Assembly (NCBI RefSeq): GCF_020860705.1
Contig: NZ_JAJBTT010000044.1
Coordinates: forward strand, 9,204 to 73,203
Direction: 5' to 3'
From: Akkermansia sp.
Lineage (GTDB): Bacteria; Verrucomicrobiota; Verrucomicrobiia; Verrucomicrobiales; Akkermansiaceae
DNA: 64,000 nucleotides
In this document: positions 1,854 to 15,011 of the stretch, piece after piece
Layout of the letters: every line of letters begins with the position of its first letter
How positions within the stretch are numbered: position 1 is the first letter of the stretch
The notes under the pieces: model-generated
Told to the model about the DNA's origin: nothing
Seen by the model: the letters and a program-made list of their open reading frames with translations, nothing else
The model's database searches: none
Program-made: the position numbers and the translations under genes

Positions 1854-2312
1854 CCCATTCCGGAAGGAAAGGGCGGATTCCGGTGGTTTTGCTGGGCCAA
1901 GTACAATCGTATGTGCCTGGAATTCTTGTTTCTCTTTTATCTGAAGCTGTCTGTTCAAGGCATTACGTTTTAAGCAGGAAGAGGCCTGCGGAGCAGGTTT
2001 GTGGAGAGAAGTGCCGTATTGATAAAGAAGCTTGGGAGTAGGAAATGAGACGGCCGGAAATACGGAATCCTTTTCTTCGTTATGCCATGCATCTCGTTTT
2101 TCCTATCCATGAGACGGTTCTTGTTTCTTGTTAAAAGAACCGGCACATTGCCCTTGAGCTTTCTTTTTCCACGTGGGAGTACCATATCCACGTCAGGGAA
2201 TTGTTTCTTGGAAACAAGTGCAAAAAATTATCCATAAGAGTGTTACGAGTCAATTAAACGAAAGACGGATTTGGAATCCGAAGTCAAAGGAAAAATCTGT
2301 GGAAAAGTTGGT

Positions 2313-2405
2313 TAGGGGTAATAGGGAACATAAGGATGATAGGAATAATAGGGGGCGGCAAAATTGCCCTATTGCCCCTATTATCCTTATATTCCCTATC
2401 ATAGG
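2313..2405. repeat. Convergent arrays of 9-bp-periodic TAGGG repeats forming a long imperfect palindrome
   Basis: Plus-strand TAGG/TAAGG starts at 2313, 2322, 2331, 2340, 2349, exactly 9 nt apart. Minus-strand copies (CCTA/CCTTA) end at 2371, 2380, 2389, 2398, also 9 nt apart. Units are TAGGGGTAA, TAGGGAACA, TAAGGATGA, TAGGAATAA, TAGGGGGCG versus TAGGGAATA, TAAGGATAA, TAGGGGCAA, TAGGGCAAT. Confidence 0.8.
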
Positions 2406-2480
2406 CATCTTTGACGGCGGCTCTGACTGCTCACGGATTCCAAATTCGTTAAGAACCAGCCGTACGGTATTTCTGTACTT

Positions 2481-3371
2481 TTGTTCATTCTAACGAAAGT
2501 TAAAACTATAAGAAAAACATTATTAATATGTACCTGCGGTGTAATGATAGGTTCCGCATCTGCGGCCTCACTTGTCTGGAATGGGGGAGAATCCGGTGCA
2601 TGGGGCACGGCCGGAAACTGGATTGATAGCGGTACGGGCAGCGCACCGGCCTCCGTCCCATCCGGCAATATAAGTGCTGCCGCTGCCAATACGTATACTC
2701 TGAACGGGCATGTGAATATTACCGAAGGCAGTATGTTCAATAACGGCAATCAGACTATTGTCATCACCAATGGTTCCTCCGTGACGCTGTCCGATGCGAC
2801 GGCCAACGGTACGGCCAGGAGGTTTGACGGCGTATTCCATATTGAGGAAGGATCTACTCTTACCGTGGGCACCTCCTATTTCTACGGAGCTTCTCAAATT
2901 TACGGGACTCTGATCGTTTGTACCCAATTCGCCCCCCAGGAGGGGTCCTCCCTGGACTTTGGCTTCTCCGGCATTATGAAGCTTTCTACCTCCAATACCT
3001 ATCACGGAATGGAGGGGAACGGACGCACTACGAGCATCAGCGCCACGCTGGATCTTGGTACGGGTTCCAATTACGAAGTGGTTCGGCGCCAATTGTTTGA
3101 TTTGAACGGCGTTACGGATTTCGATCTGAACAAATGGGGTAATCCGTGGCAAGTTACTGCCGGAACGATCCAGGGCACAAATGGAGAGGCGCTGACGGCT
3201 GCGGATGGAGACCTTGTAGCCGGAGCCGATACGCTGGGCCAGTACAAACTGGTGCTGGATGCGAAAGACGGGTTGTACATTGATTACGTGGCGGCAGTTC
3301 CGGAACCAGCCACCGCCTCTCTGAGCCTGCTGGGAATGGCCGTTTTAATGATGCGCCGCCGCAGGGCCTGA
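2481..3371 (+). CDS. Secreted PEP-CTERM-anchored protein
   Basis: N-terminal signal-like segment. LVWNGGESGAWGTAGNW resembles autotransporter-associated beta-strand repeats. C-terminus VPEPATASLSLLGMAVLMMRRRRA is PEP motif + TM helix + Arg cluster. Confidence 0.8.
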   Translation: MFILTKVKTIRKTLLICTCGVMIGSASAASLVWNGGESGAWGTAGNWIDSGTGSAPASVPSGNISAAAANTYTLNGHVNITEGSMFNNGNQTIVITNGSSVTLSDATANGTARRFDGVFHIEEGSTLTVGTSYFYGASQIYGTLIVCTQFAPQEGSSLDFGFSGIMKLSTSNTYHGMEGNGRTTSISATLDLGTGSNYEVVRRQLFDLNGVTDFDLNKWGNPWQVTAGTIQGTNGEALTAADGDLVAGADTLGQYKLVLDAKDGLYIDYVAAVPEPATASLSLLGMAVLMMRRRRA

Positions 3372-9139: not shown

Positions 9140-10576
9140 TCAGTCCCCGGAGGGGGATTCGTCCTTGACGACGACGAGGTCGAACGGGCGGATATCCACG
9201 ACGCGCACAGGGGTACCCTTAATGAGTATGCCTTGTCGAGAGAAAACCTCGCATATTTCGCCATGGATCATGGCCTTGCCGTTGGGCTTCAGTTCCGTGA
9301 CGGCGTTCCCGCGGTCGCCTATCTGCACGCGTGCAATGCTCACCGCTTCCCCGGGGGCGCCTCCGCTGACCGTGGCGTTGGTGACGCGGCGCATCAGGAT
9401 GGAATCCGGCAGGTACTTCATCAGCACGGCAATCAGGATGGCTCCTCCCGTCAGGCCCAGGGCCAGTTTCAGCAGGGGAACGCCCAGGACCACCGCCAGC
9501 GTGTTGACGTCCTCCCATTGTCCGTCCCGGATGATATGATCCCATTCCCAGGAGCTGATCATGCCGCCGAACAGGGCCAGGAAGATGCAGATGCCGCCCG
9601 CAATGGCCGCAATGAAGGTGCCGGGGATGACGAAGAATTCCACGCACAGCAGGATGACGCCCAGAATGAGCAGGGCCGCCGTTTCATACCCGGCCAGGTT
9701 CCCCGCAATGTTGTTGCCGAAGAAGAACAGGGCGAACGCGGCAATCGCCACGATACCGCCGATGCCGAACCCCGGCGTCTTGAATTCCATGTAAATGCCG
9801 CCGATGCCCAGCAGGATCAGAATGGGGGAGGCCCAGGCGATCCAGAGGCCGATGCGTTCAAAGGCGGTGGGCTCCGCCGTGACCACGGGGGCGTCCACCT
9901 TCTCCTGGGCCAGCAGGTCCGTGACGGAGGTGGCCGTTCCCTGCGCCAGCAGGGGCCTGCCGTCATCCAGCCGCGTGGCAGCCTCCTTCCCGGTCAGGGT
10001 CAGCAGGGCGCCTTTTTCCAGTTTGACGGGGCCGAACTGCTGGTCCACGTCAGACGGAATCATCATGGCCTTCACCACTTCCGGGCGGTATCCTTTTTCC
10101 GTAACCACGGAGCGGGTGAAAGCCCAGAAGGCGCTTTCCGCCTTCTTGCGCATGACGGGGTCCATTTCCTCCCCGGAGGAGGTGATGATGCCCGCCGCGC
10201 CGATGGAGGAGACGGGCGCCATGTAAATCTTGTCGCACGCCGCGGAGATGAGGGCTCCCGCGGACATGGCCTTGGGGTTCACGTAGGCATAGGTGGGGAT
10301 GGTCAGCGGCTGGATGCTTTTCATCATCATCTCGCTGGTTTCCCAGGCCAGGCCTCCGGGCGTGTTCAGGTCAAACACCACGGCGCGCGCCTGTTCCTCC
10401 TGCGCCCGCTTCAGGATGCGGTTCATGAAACCGAAGCTCTGCTTGCTGGTCAGGGAATCCTCCCCCACGGGGATGACGACTACCTGGCCACGGAAGGTTT
10501 CCTCCGCGGCCGCCCGGAACGGGGACCCGGCAAACAGGGCCAGCAGAGCCAGCAACAGAAGGTGGATGTGCTTCAT
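9140..10576 (-). CDS. NfeD-family membrane-bound ClpP-class serine protease
   Basis: Signal peptide, ClpP-like domain (VVFDLNTPGG...MSAGALISAACDKIYM), multi-TM middle, C-terminal OB-like NfeD segment (GNAVTELKPNGKAMIHGEICEV). Confidence 0.8.
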   Translation of the reverse strand: MKHIHLLLLALLALFAGSPFRAAAEETFRGQVVVIPVGEDSLTSKQSFGFMNRILKRAQEEQARAVVFDLNTPGGLAWETSEMMMKSIQPLTIPTYAYVNPKAMSAGALISAACDKIYMAPVSSIGAAGIITSSGEEMDPVMRKKAESAFWAFTRSVVTEKGYRPEVVKAMMIPSDVDQQFGPVKLEKGALLTLTGKEAATRLDDGRPLLAQGTATSVTDLLAQEKVDAPVVTAEPTAFERIGLWIAWASPILILLGIGGIYMEFKTPGFGIGGIVAIAAFALFFFGNNIAGNLAGYETAALLILGVILLCVEFFVIPGTFIAAIAGGICIFLALFGGMISSWEWDHIIRDGQWEDVNTLAVVLGVPLLKLALGLTGGAILIAVLMKYLPDSILMRRVTNATVSGGAPGEAVSIARVQIGDRGNAVTELKPNGKAMIHGEICEVFSRQGILIKGTPVRVVDIRPFDLVVVKDESPSGD

Positions 10577-10654
10577 GCCGGAAGGCTAACATGTTCCGCC
10601 TGCACGCTCAATGGAGAAGTATGTTTCCTGGGGGCAGCCCCAGTGGAGACCGCC

Positions 10655-11692
10655 TTAAACGGCTTCAGACCAGAAGAGGGCTGCATCCTTGGAGGTGATG
10701 CCTTCCATATTCAAATAACGCGTTTTCAGCAGGGACAGGCAGGAGTGGCCCATTTCATACTGCAATTCAGGATAGTTGCGGAACCTTTTGGCATGATAGC
10801 TGGCGTAGCAGTGCCTCAGCACGTCCTGAATCCAGGGAATCCCATTCCGGCCCCAGCCCGCTTTTTCCCTGATTTCCTTCCATTTCCGGTTCCAGTTTTC
10901 CGGACAGATGGGGGCATTCTTCCCCGGCATGGCTTCCATCAGCCATTTTCTCAGCACGGGCCGGATGCTCACCTGCCTGCCTCCTCCCGTCTTGCTGTGT
11001 CGCGCGGGAAGGCTGACGACGTTTTCCTCCAGGTCCACCATGCCCCAGGTCAGCCTCTCCACTTCCGCCGGGCGGATGCCGGCATACAGCATCAGGCCGA
11101 AGGCCGCCCGGCATTCTCCATGGTGCAGATTCCTGACTGTATGTTTCAATTTTTCTATTTCCGGTATGGAGAGCACCCTGATGGTTTGTTCCGCGGGGGG
11201 AGGAATATCAATCGCGTTGCCGGCTGTCGGATTGCGCTGGCACCATCCCCTTTTCCGGGCTATGGAAAAAACTCCGCTTAAAATCAGCCTGGCCTTGTAG
11301 CGCTGGCGGGGGGTGGAAAAGGCGCAGTGGATCCAGGCGCGGCATTCTTCCGGACGCATGGAGCGCACGGGGTGTCCGGAAAGGCCGGGGCACTTTCGCA
11401 TCAGCCTGTCACAGATATATCTGATTTCCGATACAGTGCGGTGGCGGCGGTGTTTTTTTGCCAGAAGCGTTTCCCGCACCGCTTCACGAAAAGGAACCGT
11501 TTTTTCCCTCCGTACCATTTCCTGCCTTCCCAGTTCCATGCATTTTCTGGCTCTGGCCAGTCTGGGGCCGCGGCCGGGAAGCGCCGCAAACATTTGCTGG
11601 ATGAGCTCCGCGGCCTCCATGATGGAAATGCCGTATTGCCTGATGAGTTGGAGGGCGGTCCGTTCCGTGGTCTGGGTGTGTTTTCTTCTCAT
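10655..11692 (-). CDS. Tyrosine site-specific recombinase (phage integrase family), stand-alone
   Basis: Catalytic signature present: LMLYAGIRPAEV (Arg I), HSKTGGGRQVSI (Lys), DVLRHCYASY (His-x-x-Arg), EMGHS...KTRYLN (His/Tyr nucleophile). No tRNA and no phage genes nearby. Confidence 0.85.
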   Translation of the reverse strand: MRRKHTQTTERTALQLIRQYGISIMEAAELIQQMFAALPGRGPRLARARKCMELGRQEMVRREKTVPFREAVRETLLAKKHRRHRTVSEIRYICDRLMRKCPGLSGHPVRSMRPEECRAWIHCAFSTPRQRYKARLILSGVFSIARKRGWCQRNPTAGNAIDIPPPAEQTIRVLSIPEIEKLKHTVRNLHHGECRAAFGLMLYAGIRPAEVERLTWGMVDLEENVVSLPARHSKTGGGRQVSIRPVLRKWLMEAMPGKNAPICPENWNRKWKEIREKAGWGRNGIPWIQDVLRHCYASYHAKRFRNYPELQYEMGHSCLSLLKTRYLNMEGITSKDAALFWSEAV

Positions 11693-11720
11693 GGTAAATT
11701 TGTTGGGGGGTTAGTACCTT

Positions 11721-11735
11721 CGGATTAGTTATCCG
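11721..11735. repeat. Left inverted repeat (IR-L) of the candidate invertible segment
   Basis: cggattagttatccg is the perfect reverse complement of 11889-11903. It has internal symmetric arms CGGAT/ATCCG around an asymmetric core TAGTT. Confidence 0.9.
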
Positions 11736-11771
11736 GCATCAAGACAAAAATAAATAATGATGTAAATGTTA

Positions 11772-11800
11772 AATATGAATATATTATGAGAATTTTTCAA
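11772..11800 (-). promoter_or_regulatory. Candidate sigma70-like promoter inside the invertible segment, facing the recombinase in this assembly
   Basis: Minus strand reads TTGAAA-17 nt-CATATT. An overlapping alternative is TTCCCA-17 nt-TAATAT. No comparably good -35/-10 pair was found on the plus strand of the segment. The promoter consensus for this phylum is assumed, not known. Confidence 0.25.
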
Positions 11801-11888
11801 TGATGGGAAATAGTTTGTTACCGAAGTTTTTTGAGAAAAATTCTCAGAAATGGATGTTTCGGAAATCAGAAGTTTGCCTGTTTTTGAA

Positions 11889-11903
11889 CGGATAACTAAT
11901 CCG
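11889..11903. repeat. Right inverted repeat (IR-R) of the candidate invertible segment
   Basis: cggataactaatccg has the same arms as IR-L with the core inverted (AACTA). Confidence 0.9.
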
Positions 11904-12072
11904 GTATTAATAGGGCATCACGAGTCACGGACGGAGGAGCTTGTTGATTATTCCGGCGCCTGAAGGAATGCGGGTACGGGAATATGGGGAGTCCCGGAAG
12001 ATTCCCGCTATCCGGAATCATGTTCCGTCATTCCAGGCACAGGAAGGACTCAACCGGAAAATTCCCATCACC

Positions 12073-12873
12073 ATGGCAGTATCCCAGCCCTCTTTGTTAT
12101 ATTTGGCCGTTCATCTGGAGCGCGCGGAGCACCGCCTTTCCTCCCTTTTACGGCAGGCGGAACGTTTCGGAATCCCCATTCAACTTGTTCCCGCCATAGA
12201 TGGCGGAGATTTGACGGACAAGGACCTGTGGAGATATGACCAAAAACGGCGCCATGCCGAATTTACCTCAGACTTGCTGCCCAATGAACACGCCTGCATC
12301 CTGAGCCATTGCAAGGCCCTGGAGGTATTTTTGAGATCCGGCGCGGATTACGGCATCATCCTTGAAGACGATATGGCCCTGCATCCCCTTTTCAATGAGG
12401 GAATCGCATGGCTGACCCGGCATACTTCTGGATGGGAATGCATCAAGCTGTTCAATGAGCATGGCCGTCTGTCTTCCCTGACCCCTCTGATGCCGGATGC
12501 CCCCGTTCAATTGGTATTCCCCAGAAAAGTGACCTGCGTGGCCGTTGGCAACCTTTATACAAGGGAAGGGGCTCTCCGTGTACTTGAAGGTTTTGATTAT
12601 TATTGGAAGGCGTATGACACCTGGTGGGGTGAACTTGTCATCCGCCGCAGGATTCCCGTCTGTGGCGTATTTCCCAGCCTGGTCTATACTCTTGATCCTG
12701 AGAACAAGCACAGCACCATAGATGAAGACTGCGTCCGCTCCTGCATGGTCCGGAATGGAAAACAGGGAAGGACGATGCGTCAATGGCTGATGCACAGGGC
12801 GTGCTCCTGGCGGTTATCATGGGGGAAATGGCGCATGCGGACATGGATGAAAAGAAGGCTGTGCATTCATTGA
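12073..12873 (+). CDS. Glycosyltransferase family 25 (LPS/LOS biosynthesis type)
   Basis: LLYLAVHLERAEHRLSSLLRQAERFGIPIQLVPAIDG...NEHACILSHCKAL...GIILEDDM matches the GT25 (Lic2/LgtB-like) pattern. ORF opens at TTG 11941; ATG 12073 preferred. Confidence 0.75.
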   Translation: MAVSQPSLLYLAVHLERAEHRLSSLLRQAERFGIPIQLVPAIDGGDLTDKDLWRYDQKRRHAEFTSDLLPNEHACILSHCKALEVFLRSGADYGIILEDDMALHPLFNEGIAWLTRHTSGWECIKLFNEHGRLSSLTPLMPDAPVQLVFPRKVTCVAVGNLYTREGALRVLEGFDYYWKAYDTWWGELVIRRRIPVCGVFPSLVYTLDPENKHSTIDEDCVRSCMVRNGKQGRTMRQWLMHRACSWRLSWGKWRMRTWMKRRLCIH

Positions 12874-12940
12874 CTCCCATGGCGGCTTCTTTCCTGTTAC
12901 GGAGGCCGCGGATTTTTTCAATTTGACCAATAAAGATAAC

Positions 12941-13750
12941 ATGAAACGCTTATCCATTATTACCGTATGCCTGAATGAACGGCATGGCATTGAAAAAACA
13001 TGTAAAAGCATCGTCTCCCAAACCTGGATGGATTTTGAATGGATCGTGATTGACGGAGCCTCTACCGATGGCACGCTGGATGTCCTGTCCCGGTATCCCG
13101 TGACGCGGCTCGTTTCCGAACCGGATGGAGGCATTTACGAGGCCATGAACAAGGGGATCCGGCTGGCACAGGGGGAATTCGTCATTTTTCTGAACGGAGG
13201 GGATTATTTCCACCATCCGGAAGTCCTGTCGGAAGTTTTTGAAAAACAGAATTATCAGGAAGATATTCTGTGCGGTAACGTTCTATTGGCCAATAGTCTG
13301 GATAAAATCAACAGGCCCCCGCGGAACGTGTCTTCTCCCCTCGTGTTCATCGGGGAGAGTATACCGCACCAGGCGGCTTTTATCAGGAGACGCCTGTTCA
13401 CGGACTATGGATTTTACGATGAAAAACTGCGCATTGTCAGTGACTGGAAGCAATGGATTGTCTTTGCGTTCAACAAATGCAGGTTCAGGAACCTGAACCT
13501 GCTGATTTCCGTTTTTGATGATAAGGGGATTTCTTCAGTCAGGCCGGACCTGCTTCAGCAGGAATATATCCAGGTGGTGAATTCCTTCTTTCTTCATGGG
13601 GAGAATTACAGAAGCGTCAAAAGCATCCGGTGGGTGAAGCTGCTGGGTTTCCTTCCCATCCTAAAAATCCGCCGTTCACGGAATAAAAGGAAAATTCTGT
13701 TATTCGGCATCTTGCCTTTGTTTTCCGTGGGAGACCAGGCCTGGACATGA
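12941..13750 (+). CDS. Glycosyltransferase family 2
   Basis: LSIITVCLNERHGIEKTCKSIVSQTWMDFEWIVIDGASTDGT...FLNGGD is a classic GT2 N-terminal domain. Confidence 0.85.
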   Translation: MKRLSIITVCLNERHGIEKTCKSIVSQTWMDFEWIVIDGASTDGTLDVLSRYPVTRLVSEPDGGIYEAMNKGIRLAQGEFVIFLNGGDYFHHPEVLSEVFEKQNYQEDILCGNVLLANSLDKINRPPRNVSSPLVFIGESIPHQAAFIRRRLFTDYGFYDEKLRIVSDWKQWIVFAFNKCRFRNLNLLISVFDDKGISSVRPDLLQQEYIQVVNSFFLHGENYRSVKSIRWVKLLGFLPILKIRRSRNKRKILLFGILPLFSVGDQAWT

Positions 13751-14850
13751 AGCGGATGCCGCCCCCGGAAATTGTTGCAAACAGAAAACGGTCCGCCGTG
13801 ATGAAAGCAGTAGAAAGGTTGAATGATATGGAACAGTCCTCCAAGGAAGCGGTGCACGTGGTATTTTCCACGGATGATGAGTATGCGCCTTATTGCGGCG
13901 TAGCCGTCAGTTCCCTGATACGGCACGCCTCCCCCGACCGGAATTATGAGATCTTCATTCTTGCGGACGGATTGTCTGAGGAATACCAGACCCTCCTGAC
14001 AGGACTGGCCGGGGGCCGGAGCCGTGTGTCCGTTCGTCTGTTTTCCGTTTCCGCCCATTTAAGCCAGCTCAGGAACAGTGTTTTATCCCGCCTGCCGCTC
14101 GCCGCGTATTACAGGCTTCTGCTTGCTACGCTGTTTCCACGTCTGGACAGAATCGTTTACTGCGACTGCGACGTTCTTGTCTGCCATGATATTGCCGAAC
14201 TTTACGATACGGAACTGGGCGACAGTCTGGCGGCAGCCGTTCCGGACCGGGCAGTCGGCATGATCGGCGGGGAATGGCTGGACCGGGCCAGGGAGATGCT
14301 TCCCGGATTGGGACTTTCCGCGGACCATTTTTTCAATTCGGGAGTGTTGCTCATGAATCTTGGCCTGTGCAGAAAGGAACAGCTGGAGTCGGCCATGATT
14401 GAGCTGTCCAAACTTCCCGGCCGCATGTGGCATGACCAGGACGTTCTCAACATGGCATTCAAGAACAGGTGGGTGCGCCTTGACGATTCATGGAACCTGA
14501 CCCTCCATATGTATGGGAAGGAAGAATTTCTGCCGGGCATGGAGGCTGGGCCGTTTTCCGGCGGAGAACCGCCCCGGGTGATTCACTTCGCCCGTTCTTC
14601 CAGAAAACCGTGGGATGGCTATGACAGCCCTTATGTGTCTTTATGGTGGAGGGAGGCCAACCGTTCGCCCTTCCGCCGGGAAATCCATGCTCGCTATAAC
14701 AGGAAATTCCTTACTTTGAAAAAAAGGATCAAACTTTTCCTATCCATGCTGGCGTTTTTCCTTTGTCCGCTTCCTTCCCTGAAAAGGAAGGTCCGGAAAC
14801 GGCGCGTGCGGTTTGATTTGCCCCGGGGTATTTCCCGGTTCAATGTTTAG
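13747..14850 (+). CDS. Glycosyltransferase family 8 (RfaJ/LgtC-like)
   Basis: VHVVFSTDDEYAPYCGVAVSSLI, YCDCDVLVCHDIAELY (DxD) and FNSGVLLMNL are GT8 motifs. The start overlaps the upstream stop (ATGA), suggesting an operon. Confidence 0.85.
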   Translation: MKRMPPPEIVANRKRSAVMKAVERLNDMEQSSKEAVHVVFSTDDEYAPYCGVAVSSLIRHASPDRNYEIFILADGLSEEYQTLLTGLAGGRSRVSVRLFSVSAHLSQLRNSVLSRLPLAAYYRLLLATLFPRLDRIVYCDCDVLVCHDIAELYDTELGDSLAAAVPDRAVGMIGGEWLDRAREMLPGLGLSADHFFNSGVLLMNLGLCRKEQLESAMIELSKLPGRMWHDQDVLNMAFKNRWVRLDDSWNLTLHMYGKEEFLPGMEAGPFSGGEPPRVIHFARSSRKPWDGYDSPYVSLWWREANRSPFRREIHARYNRKFLTLKKRIKLFLSMLAFFLCPLPSLKRKVRKRRVRFDLPRGISRFNV

Positions 14851-15011
14851 CGTGGAGAGTTTTTCCCGCCGCGGACGGGGCAGGGAATGGCGTCTTCATT
14901 CATGGGAGCGGCTGCGGAAGAAATGTTTTCCGTGATTCCGGGGCGACGGCTCCGCATCCGATTCTGTCTTCTTGAGCATCCGCCGGCGCTGTGATAGAGT
15001 GGCTGCGCCTT

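Follow-up and report, generated by a model that had tools for sequence, protein, structure and literature searches.

The window, by which we mean the whole 64-kb stretch of DNA that was analysed, contains a 153-bp invertible segment that is best read, at a probability of roughly 70%, as an Akkermansia-type inverton. On this reading, the segment would switch a GT25-GT2-GT8 glycosyltransferase operon ON and OFF by means of a promoter split across one of its inverted repeats, and the tyrosine recombinase encoded next to it would most likely do the flipping; recombinase, switch and operon together form a 4.3-kb accessory island (Table 1). A recombinase-associated ON/OFF switch upstream of a glycosyltransferase operon had been proposed from the sequence beforehand (the original prediction); the proposal is supported by the inverted state of the segment in a public contig (L005), by conservation of the repeats in an ortholog (L102) and by dozens of paralogous loci, five of which are flipped.

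Table 1. Features of the switch locus and of a second inverton, in window coordinates.
Feature	Position	Strand	Evidence
Second inverton, same type, upstream of a PEP-CTERM protein gene (2481-3371)	2266..2448		IR arms
Accessory island, ~4.3 kb: recombinase, switch and GT operon, between nfeD and dnaG	~10640..14945		flank alignments
Tyrosine recombinase, 345 aa, candidate invertase, divergent from the GT operon	10655..11692	-	PF00589
IR-L, recombinase-proximal inversion site, CGGAT-TAGTT-ATCCG	11721..11735		repeat finder, copy count, ortholog L102
Invertible segment, 153 bp, GC ~0.25	11736..11888		exactly reverse-complemented in L005
-35-like hexamer TTGATG after a T-rich tract, at the segment edge, pointing toward the recombinase	11737..11742	-	family alignment
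IR-R, cargo-proximal inversion site, CGGAT-AACTA-ATCCG; most of the putative 17-nt promoter spacer	11889..11903		
Fixed -10-like hexamer TATTAA just outside IR-R	11905..11910	+	family TAnnnT pattern; predicted TSS ~11917
GT25 glycosyltransferase, first operon gene; alternative starts TTG 11941, ATG 12073	11968..12873	+	PF01755, E = 3.6e-11
GT2 glycosyltransferase	12923..13750	+	PF00535, E = 1.3e-22
GT8 glycosyltransferase	13747..14850	+	PF01501, E = 1.5e-40

Inverted repeats and inversion in public contigs

Sequence reading together with a repeat finder identified CGGATTAGTTATCCG at IR-L and its exact reverse complement, CGGATAACTAATCCG, at IR-R, with 153 nt between them. With up to two mismatches allowed, the 15-mer was found at these two places only in the 64 kb, against an expectation of 0.06, and none of 100 shuffled sequences reached two copies. 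The looser pattern CGGAT-N5-ATCCG gave three matches in the window, where 0.10 would be expected. The perfect 15-bp inverted repeats around 153 bp described in the original prediction are thus confirmed and lie far beyond chance. The same holds for the finer structure that had been described: each site is composed of symmetric 5-bp arms and an asymmetric 5-nt core, the cores of the two sites being exact reverse complements, and the interior is AT-rich, with a GC content of 0.22-0.33 as compared with 0.5-0.65 in the flanks. An Rfam search of positions 10000-13500 returned no match, neither a riboswitch nor another known RNA being found in the leader.

Public assemblies were looked up with the exact recombinase protein of the window, yielding several contigs. 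In L005 (ENA ERZ28602349, recorded in two samples), the 153 bp are exactly inverted between unchanged repeats and flanks; the contig reads, in order, identical recombinase, left flank, IR-L, reverse-complemented interior, IR-R and right flank, and IR-L is the junction in both orientations. Five other contigs (L001, L002, L098, L099 and L101) carry the orientation of the window. The comparison across assemblies that had been suggested earlier therefore uncovered the opposite state, at this locus in one contig from two samples, and the 153-bp segment flips between two orientations in nature. A switch that is present in both orientations leads assemblers to break contigs at or inside it. Breaks within the segment were seen at the ends of L003 and L100, and L004 stops 3 nt short of IR-L; at related loci, L103 begins 4 nt ahead of the distal repeat and L106 1 nt ahead of the proximal one. 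At a further locus (L050, positions 1-241), the contig end carries a perfect fold-back of 59 nt that takes in the repeat of the inverton and some of the recombinase start and is probably an assembly artefact from mixed orientations.

The repeats were also compared with those of L102 (P0002), an ortholog whose recombinase has 76% protein identity to that of the window. Both repeats are identical at 15 of 15 positions, and the interior and the cargo-side flank show 78% and 68% identity, respectively. The context of the ortholog matches the window, with nfeD, recombinase, switch, GT25-GT2-GT8 and dnaG in this order. The original prediction had tied its fate to conservation of the repeats in relatives that keep the recombinase, and this is what the ortholog exhibits.

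The adjacent recombinase and its family

The gene adjoining the segment matched PF00589 (Phage_integrase) with a score of 38.7 bits, the gathering cutoff being 27.1, and its ATG is located 28 nt from IR-L, in line with the ~29 bp given earlier. Assignment to the tyrosine recombinases by Pfam rejects a serine invertase of the Hin/Gin or Mpi type as the adjacent enzyme. Profile alignment to XerD, XerC and XerA placed the catalytic residues at R207, K234, D290-x-x-R293, H316 and Y326. The complete R-K-HxxR-H-Y signature attributed to this protein at the outset does not hold in these alignments: the histidine of HxxR is replaced by aspartate (D290, codon 10823-10825), and this aspartate is kept in at least 90% of 37 homologs. 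R207, K234, R293, H316 and Y326 are invariant, and five of the six catalytic positions are canonical. A phmmer search of the PDB with the single protein produced no match; a profile search of the PDB returned XerC, XerA and XerD as the best matches, all distant (E ~1e-7). A tRNA scan of the window detected none, and the survey of ORFs and Pfam domains identified no phage genes near the recombinase, both as initially described; att-like direct repeats were likewise not found. An integrative mobile element, that is, a phage or ICE integrase with its att sites, was rejected because the repeats are inverted and not direct and because neither a tRNA nor nearby phage genes are present.

A scan of genome contigs with the single recombinase protein detected no relatives, whereas an alignment-based scan of species-representative genomes detected at least 536 in Akkermansiaceae. 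Essentially every one of the best 80 derives from Akkermansia or from Akkermansiaceae MAGs, and a genome holds several of them. In about 55 of the 80 best loci, an inverted-repeat pair is situated 0-50 bp upstream of the recombinase start and encloses 110-160 bp; eight further contigs among the 80, one of them L050, end within 170 bp upstream of the recombinase gene. The typical form of the repeats is (CGC)TTTCGGAATCCGTAA / TTACGGATTCCGAAA(GCG), and repeats of paralogous invertons in one genome are often near-identical. Family recombinases with an inverton always diverge from their cargo. In A. muciniphila, the members nearest to the window protein (~50% identity) are placed upstream of, and divergent from, the genes for a TRL protein and a large autotransporter. 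A 58%-identical paralog from the same sample as the window strain is found upstream of a polysaccharide-type operon and has the repeats CGGATTCACAATCCG / CGGATTGTGAATCCG. In L082, L083, L049, L029, L026 and other paralogs, the recombinase ATG follows the repeat by 6-15 nt, and a transcript running toward the recombinase would be nearly leaderless; judging from this spacing, orientation-dependent expression of the recombinase is possible in paralogs such as L082 and L083. One typical Akkermansia recombinase-inverton cassette is carried by a 3.2-kb contig binned as 'Faecousia sp.' (L047, JAZUMW010000134.1), a placement that is probably a binning error.

The gene arrangement makes the adjacent tyrosine recombinase the most likely catalyst of the inversion. 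The binding sites would be the symmetric CGGAT/ATCCG arms, with strand exchange in the asymmetric core, and we favour this enzyme on account of the tight and consistent adjacency of family members to invertons. The segment might instead be inverted by a recombinase acting in trans from elsewhere in the genome, the adjacent gene being only the integrase that delivered the island or a regulator of something else, which we consider unlikely. This alternative draws on the presence in the window of another inverton of this type, which has no recombinase beside it. Its arms, ATTTGGAATCCG (2269-2280) and CGGATTCCAAAT (2434-2445), flank 153 nt; a TTGACT at its left edge points left, and inversion would produce TTGACT-17-TAAGAA (2450-2455). 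It draws as well on the hCom2 study, where a test for association of invertons with nearby invertases gave no significant result for the Akkermansia group, in which 32 A. muciniphila invertons share one IR motif (PMC11892184). These 32 invertons presumably outnumber the recombinases of the family in A. muciniphila. The near-identical repeats of paralogs in the same genome make cross-reactivity plausible, and the module of recombinase, switch and operon is an accessory island. Opposed to a trans-acting enzyme are the position of the recombinase beside the inverton in about 55 of the 80 best loci, always within 0-50 bp and always divergent from the cargo, and the ortholog, in which recombinase, repeats and cargo have stayed together; a role as integrase is further contradicted by the lack of att-like direct repeats, tRNA genes and phage genes noted above. 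Comparison of recombinase identity with site similarity gave a rho of -0.50 (permutation p = 0.001). We rejected this covariation as evidence of specificity, since co-inheritance by common descent alone explains it.

A putative promoter split across the repeat

Invertons of the family were aligned by their recombinase-proximal edge. The alignment revealed a conserved T-rich tract followed by GCTTGACT, which adjoins the repeat and in which TTG is invariant. The corresponding hexamer of the window, TTGATG, would move to 11882-11887 on the plus strand upon inversion. On the cargo side, after a spacing of exactly 17 nt from the -35, T, A and T are present at -10 positions 1, 2 and 6 in 94%, 92% and 83% of 49 loci, respectively, typical hexamers being TAGAAT, TAGACT and TATAAT. 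The pattern TAnnnT occurs on the cargo side in 42 of the 49 loci and on the recombinase side in none, and the mean number of matches to TATAAT (out of six) is 4.27 on the cargo side versus 1.82 on the recombinase side. Past the hexamer, the cargo flanks are unconserved, which argues that conservation of the -10 is not residual duplication. The one-sided occurrence of TAnnnT points to the repeat as a promoter spacer and to a sigma-70-type promoter that is present in one orientation only.

We propose that the flipping DNA would carry the T-rich tract and the -35 (TTGATG) at one edge, that the 17-nt spacer would consist of the 15-bp repeat and one further base at either end, and that the -10 (TATTAA) would stay fixed outside the repeat on the operon side. 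The flipped orientation, as in L005, would assemble TTGATG-17-TATTAA firing toward the operon. The window copy has its -35 directed toward the recombinase side, which lacks a -10, the would-be hexamer there being AGGTAC; it is therefore predicted to be OFF and L005 to be ON. The -10 of the window keeps T1 and A2 and is without T6, which is present in 83% of the family; the ortholog has TATTGA, and only TA at positions 1 and 2 is consistently kept in the sub-clade of the window (5/5 loci). The combination of TTGATG and TATTAA scores 8/12, under the threshold of the scan, and from its sequence the promoter at this locus may be weak or factor-dependent. In a sigma-70 scan of the locus in the state of the window, no promoter was seen on the plus strand ahead of the glycosyltransferase operon. 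The sole site returned by the scan, TTGAAA-17-CATATT on the minus strand inside the segment (11800-11772), is no more than shuffles are expected to give and was not relied on.

The direction of the -35 raises an improbable alternative, namely that the recombinase is the main target of the switch, which would act by autoregulation or as an orientation-biased 'lock', while the glycosyltransferase operon is transcribed from another promoter. As assembled, 49 of 54 loci have the -35 motif facing the recombinase, and the remaining five have it facing the cargo; in the flipped paralogous loci (L030, L039, L065, L079 and L095) the motif is reverse-complemented at the other end. The ATG only 6-15 nt past the repeat in many paralogs would also allow a leaderless transcript. 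Against this stand the recombinase side itself, with TAnnnT in 0 of 49 loci and a mean of 1.8 of 6 matches, and the strongly conserved cargo side; in the window, moreover, the ATG is 28 nt away from the repeat and the would-be -10 is AGGTAC. Control of the recombinase is in any case compatible with control of the cargo as well.

It is very improbable that the repeats are static palindromic operators for a dimeric regulator, or a chance repeat, with L005 as an assembly artefact. Each 15-mer is itself nearly palindromic with its 5-bp arms, but operators have no need of 5-nt cores that are exact reverse complements; the flipped state also occurs at five paralogous loci, and flipping of this class has been demonstrated experimentally (PMC13343947). 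The flipped state of the window locus is seen in a single contig, and two scans of JGI metagenomes, for the flipped junction and for the native cargo-side junction, gave no match. The lack of the native junction as well indicates a collection without the organism and makes the scans uninformative. As the 15-bp repeat is shorter than usual assembly k-mers, the novel junctions of L005 must, we infer, stem from real reads, and both the operator-site and the chance-repeat readings were rejected on the inversion in L005.

Known switches, the accessory island and family cargo

Switching of surface structures by short invertible elements has an example in fimS of E. coli, an element of 314 bp with 9-bp inverted repeats that holds the whole promoter and next to which the tyrosine recombinases FimB and FimE are encoded. 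The switch of the window resembles fimS in its short invertible element, short inverted repeats, adjacent tyrosine recombinase and ON/OFF control of a surface structure. It differs in flipping only the -35 and the tract upstream of it and in having one recombinase, not two, which belongs to an only distantly related family with DxxR in place of HxxR. In Bacteroides, polysaccharide promoters (of the TAnnTTTG type) are located wholly inside the invertible region, and their inversion involves the global serine recombinase Mpi; the Tsr enzymes are tyrosine recombinases. Bacteroides and Akkermansia have in common that these gut commensals hold many invertons per genome, with common repeat motifs, upstream of surface glycan or protein genes, and that some have local tyrosine recombinases. 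The promoter elements described here differ in that they look sigma-70-like (TTGACT-17-TAnnnT) and are apparently split across the repeat. The analogy with fimS and Bacteroides drawn in the original prediction is therefore valid for an invertible ON/OFF element and fails for the promoter, which is not wholly inside the segment: a complete fimS-type promoter was rejected, as the segment contains only the -35, whereas the conserved -10 is found beyond the repeat, toward the cargo. The GT25 and GT8 genes for LOS in Haemophilus and Neisseria (lic2A, lgtC) undergo phase variation by slipped-strand mispairing at simple repeats within the genes. They belong to the same CAZy families under stochastic ON/OFF control as the genes in the window, and the mechanism differs, being DNA inversion here.

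Within the genus itself, Akkermansia is rich in intergenic invertons (PMC10028968). The hCom2 study (PMC11892184, 2025) assigned 32 A. muciniphila invertons with a common IR and promoter motif to "group 138"; its example has 17-bp repeats, a 157-bp interior and a location near autotransporters, and PEP-CTERM proteins are enriched nearby. A 2026 paper on the cps1 capsule switch documented flipping in culture, in mice and in humans, and its methods section gives CGGATT..AATCCG as the Akkermansia IR motif, attributed to Jiang et al. 2019 (PMC13343947). The window copy shares with these invertons the genus, the CGGAT(T)...(A)ATCCG arms, an interior of ~150 bp and an intergenic position upstream of surface or glycan genes. 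IR-L starts with CGGATT and IR-R ends with AATCCG; each site is CGGAT-N5-ATCCG with TATCCG at one end, so the literal 14-mer CGGATT-NN-AATCCG is unmatched. The 153-bp interior contains the conserved T-rich tract and TTGAC element common to more than 50 related invertons. As the repeat is a close variant of the published motif with the same geometry, this kind of element is already known.

The window copy differs from the published invertons in its 5-nt core, in its GT25-GT2-GT8 cargo within a 4.3-kb island and in coming from an uncultured lineage. It also has an adjacent tyrosine recombinase, whereas the cps1 paper mentions no recombinase (PMC13343947). No mention of a split -35/-10 arrangement was found in the accessible parts of the published Akkermansia accounts consulted. 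The original prediction was aware of no characterisation of this particular switch or its regulon. This still holds for the window copy and its regulon, of which we found no record, and does not apply to the class, which has been characterised in Akkermansia (PMC13343947, PMC11892184). Found to go beyond the searchable literature were the recombinase family with its own invertons, the split promoter and the GT25-GT2-GT8 accessory island.

The GT25-GT2-GT8 cluster predicted beyond the segment was verified by Pfam. GT8 overlaps GT2 by 4 nt, and GT25 has 301 aa in the gene call of L001. In comparisons that stayed under the curated cutoffs, GT2 is WcaE-like (NCBIfam) and GT8 resembles LPS 3-alpha-galactosyltransferase. 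In L107-L110, contigs of the A. muciniphila type, dnaG and nfeD adjoin each other divergently at a distance of ~210 bp; recombinase, switch and operon, which lie between these genes in the window and which those contigs lack, thus constitute an accessory island of 4.3 kb. No duplication of a target site was found.

Akkermansia ranks among the leading candidates for a next-generation probiotic, and how it interacts with mucus and the immune system is shaped by its surface glycans. The island suggests that some lineages stochastically vary an LOS-type or other surface glycan through accessory, phase-variable glycosyltransferases. If so, heterogeneity would arise both between strains and within a strain, which would be relevant to colonisation and to product consistency. 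The analysis also links the known class of Akkermansia invertons to a specific recombinase family. The proposed split-promoter logic predicts ON and OFF states from sequence alone, which makes it possible to interpret the orientations called from metagenomes and to design strains locked ON or OFF.

First cargo genes across the family were surveyed by their products. In 23 of 53 cases the product is a giant "MKLHLP..." surface protein with autotransporter, PMP-repeat, PATR or PEP-CTERM features; other first cargo genes encode GtrA, a PMT_2-like transferase, an AT3-SGNH acyltransferase, and SIR2-like, AAA-ATPase or dynamin-like GTPase proteins. The GT25-GT2-GT8 operon fits the glycan-modifying subset of this cargo. 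We tentatively propose, at somewhat less than even odds, that Akkermansiaceae hold a large, undescribed family of self-contained phase-variation cassettes. Each would combine a DxxR recombinase with an inverton of its own directly beside it. In a split sigma-70 promoter, the recombination site would at the same time be the 17-nt spacer between a -35 on the flipping DNA and a -10 fixed on the cargo side; the cargo would comprise giant adhesins, glycan enzymes and defence-like proteins (SIR2, AAA-ATPase), and the cassettes would be able to land as islands, as the GT25-GT2-GT8 copy would have done between nfeD and dnaG.

Defence-like cargo was observed at L044, L045, L060, L064, L071, L072, L018 and L104, consisting of SIR2_2 proteins, AAA_15/AAA_21 ATPases, a dynamin-like GTPase, and an AAA ATPase with small ORFs, which suggests phase-variable phage defence.
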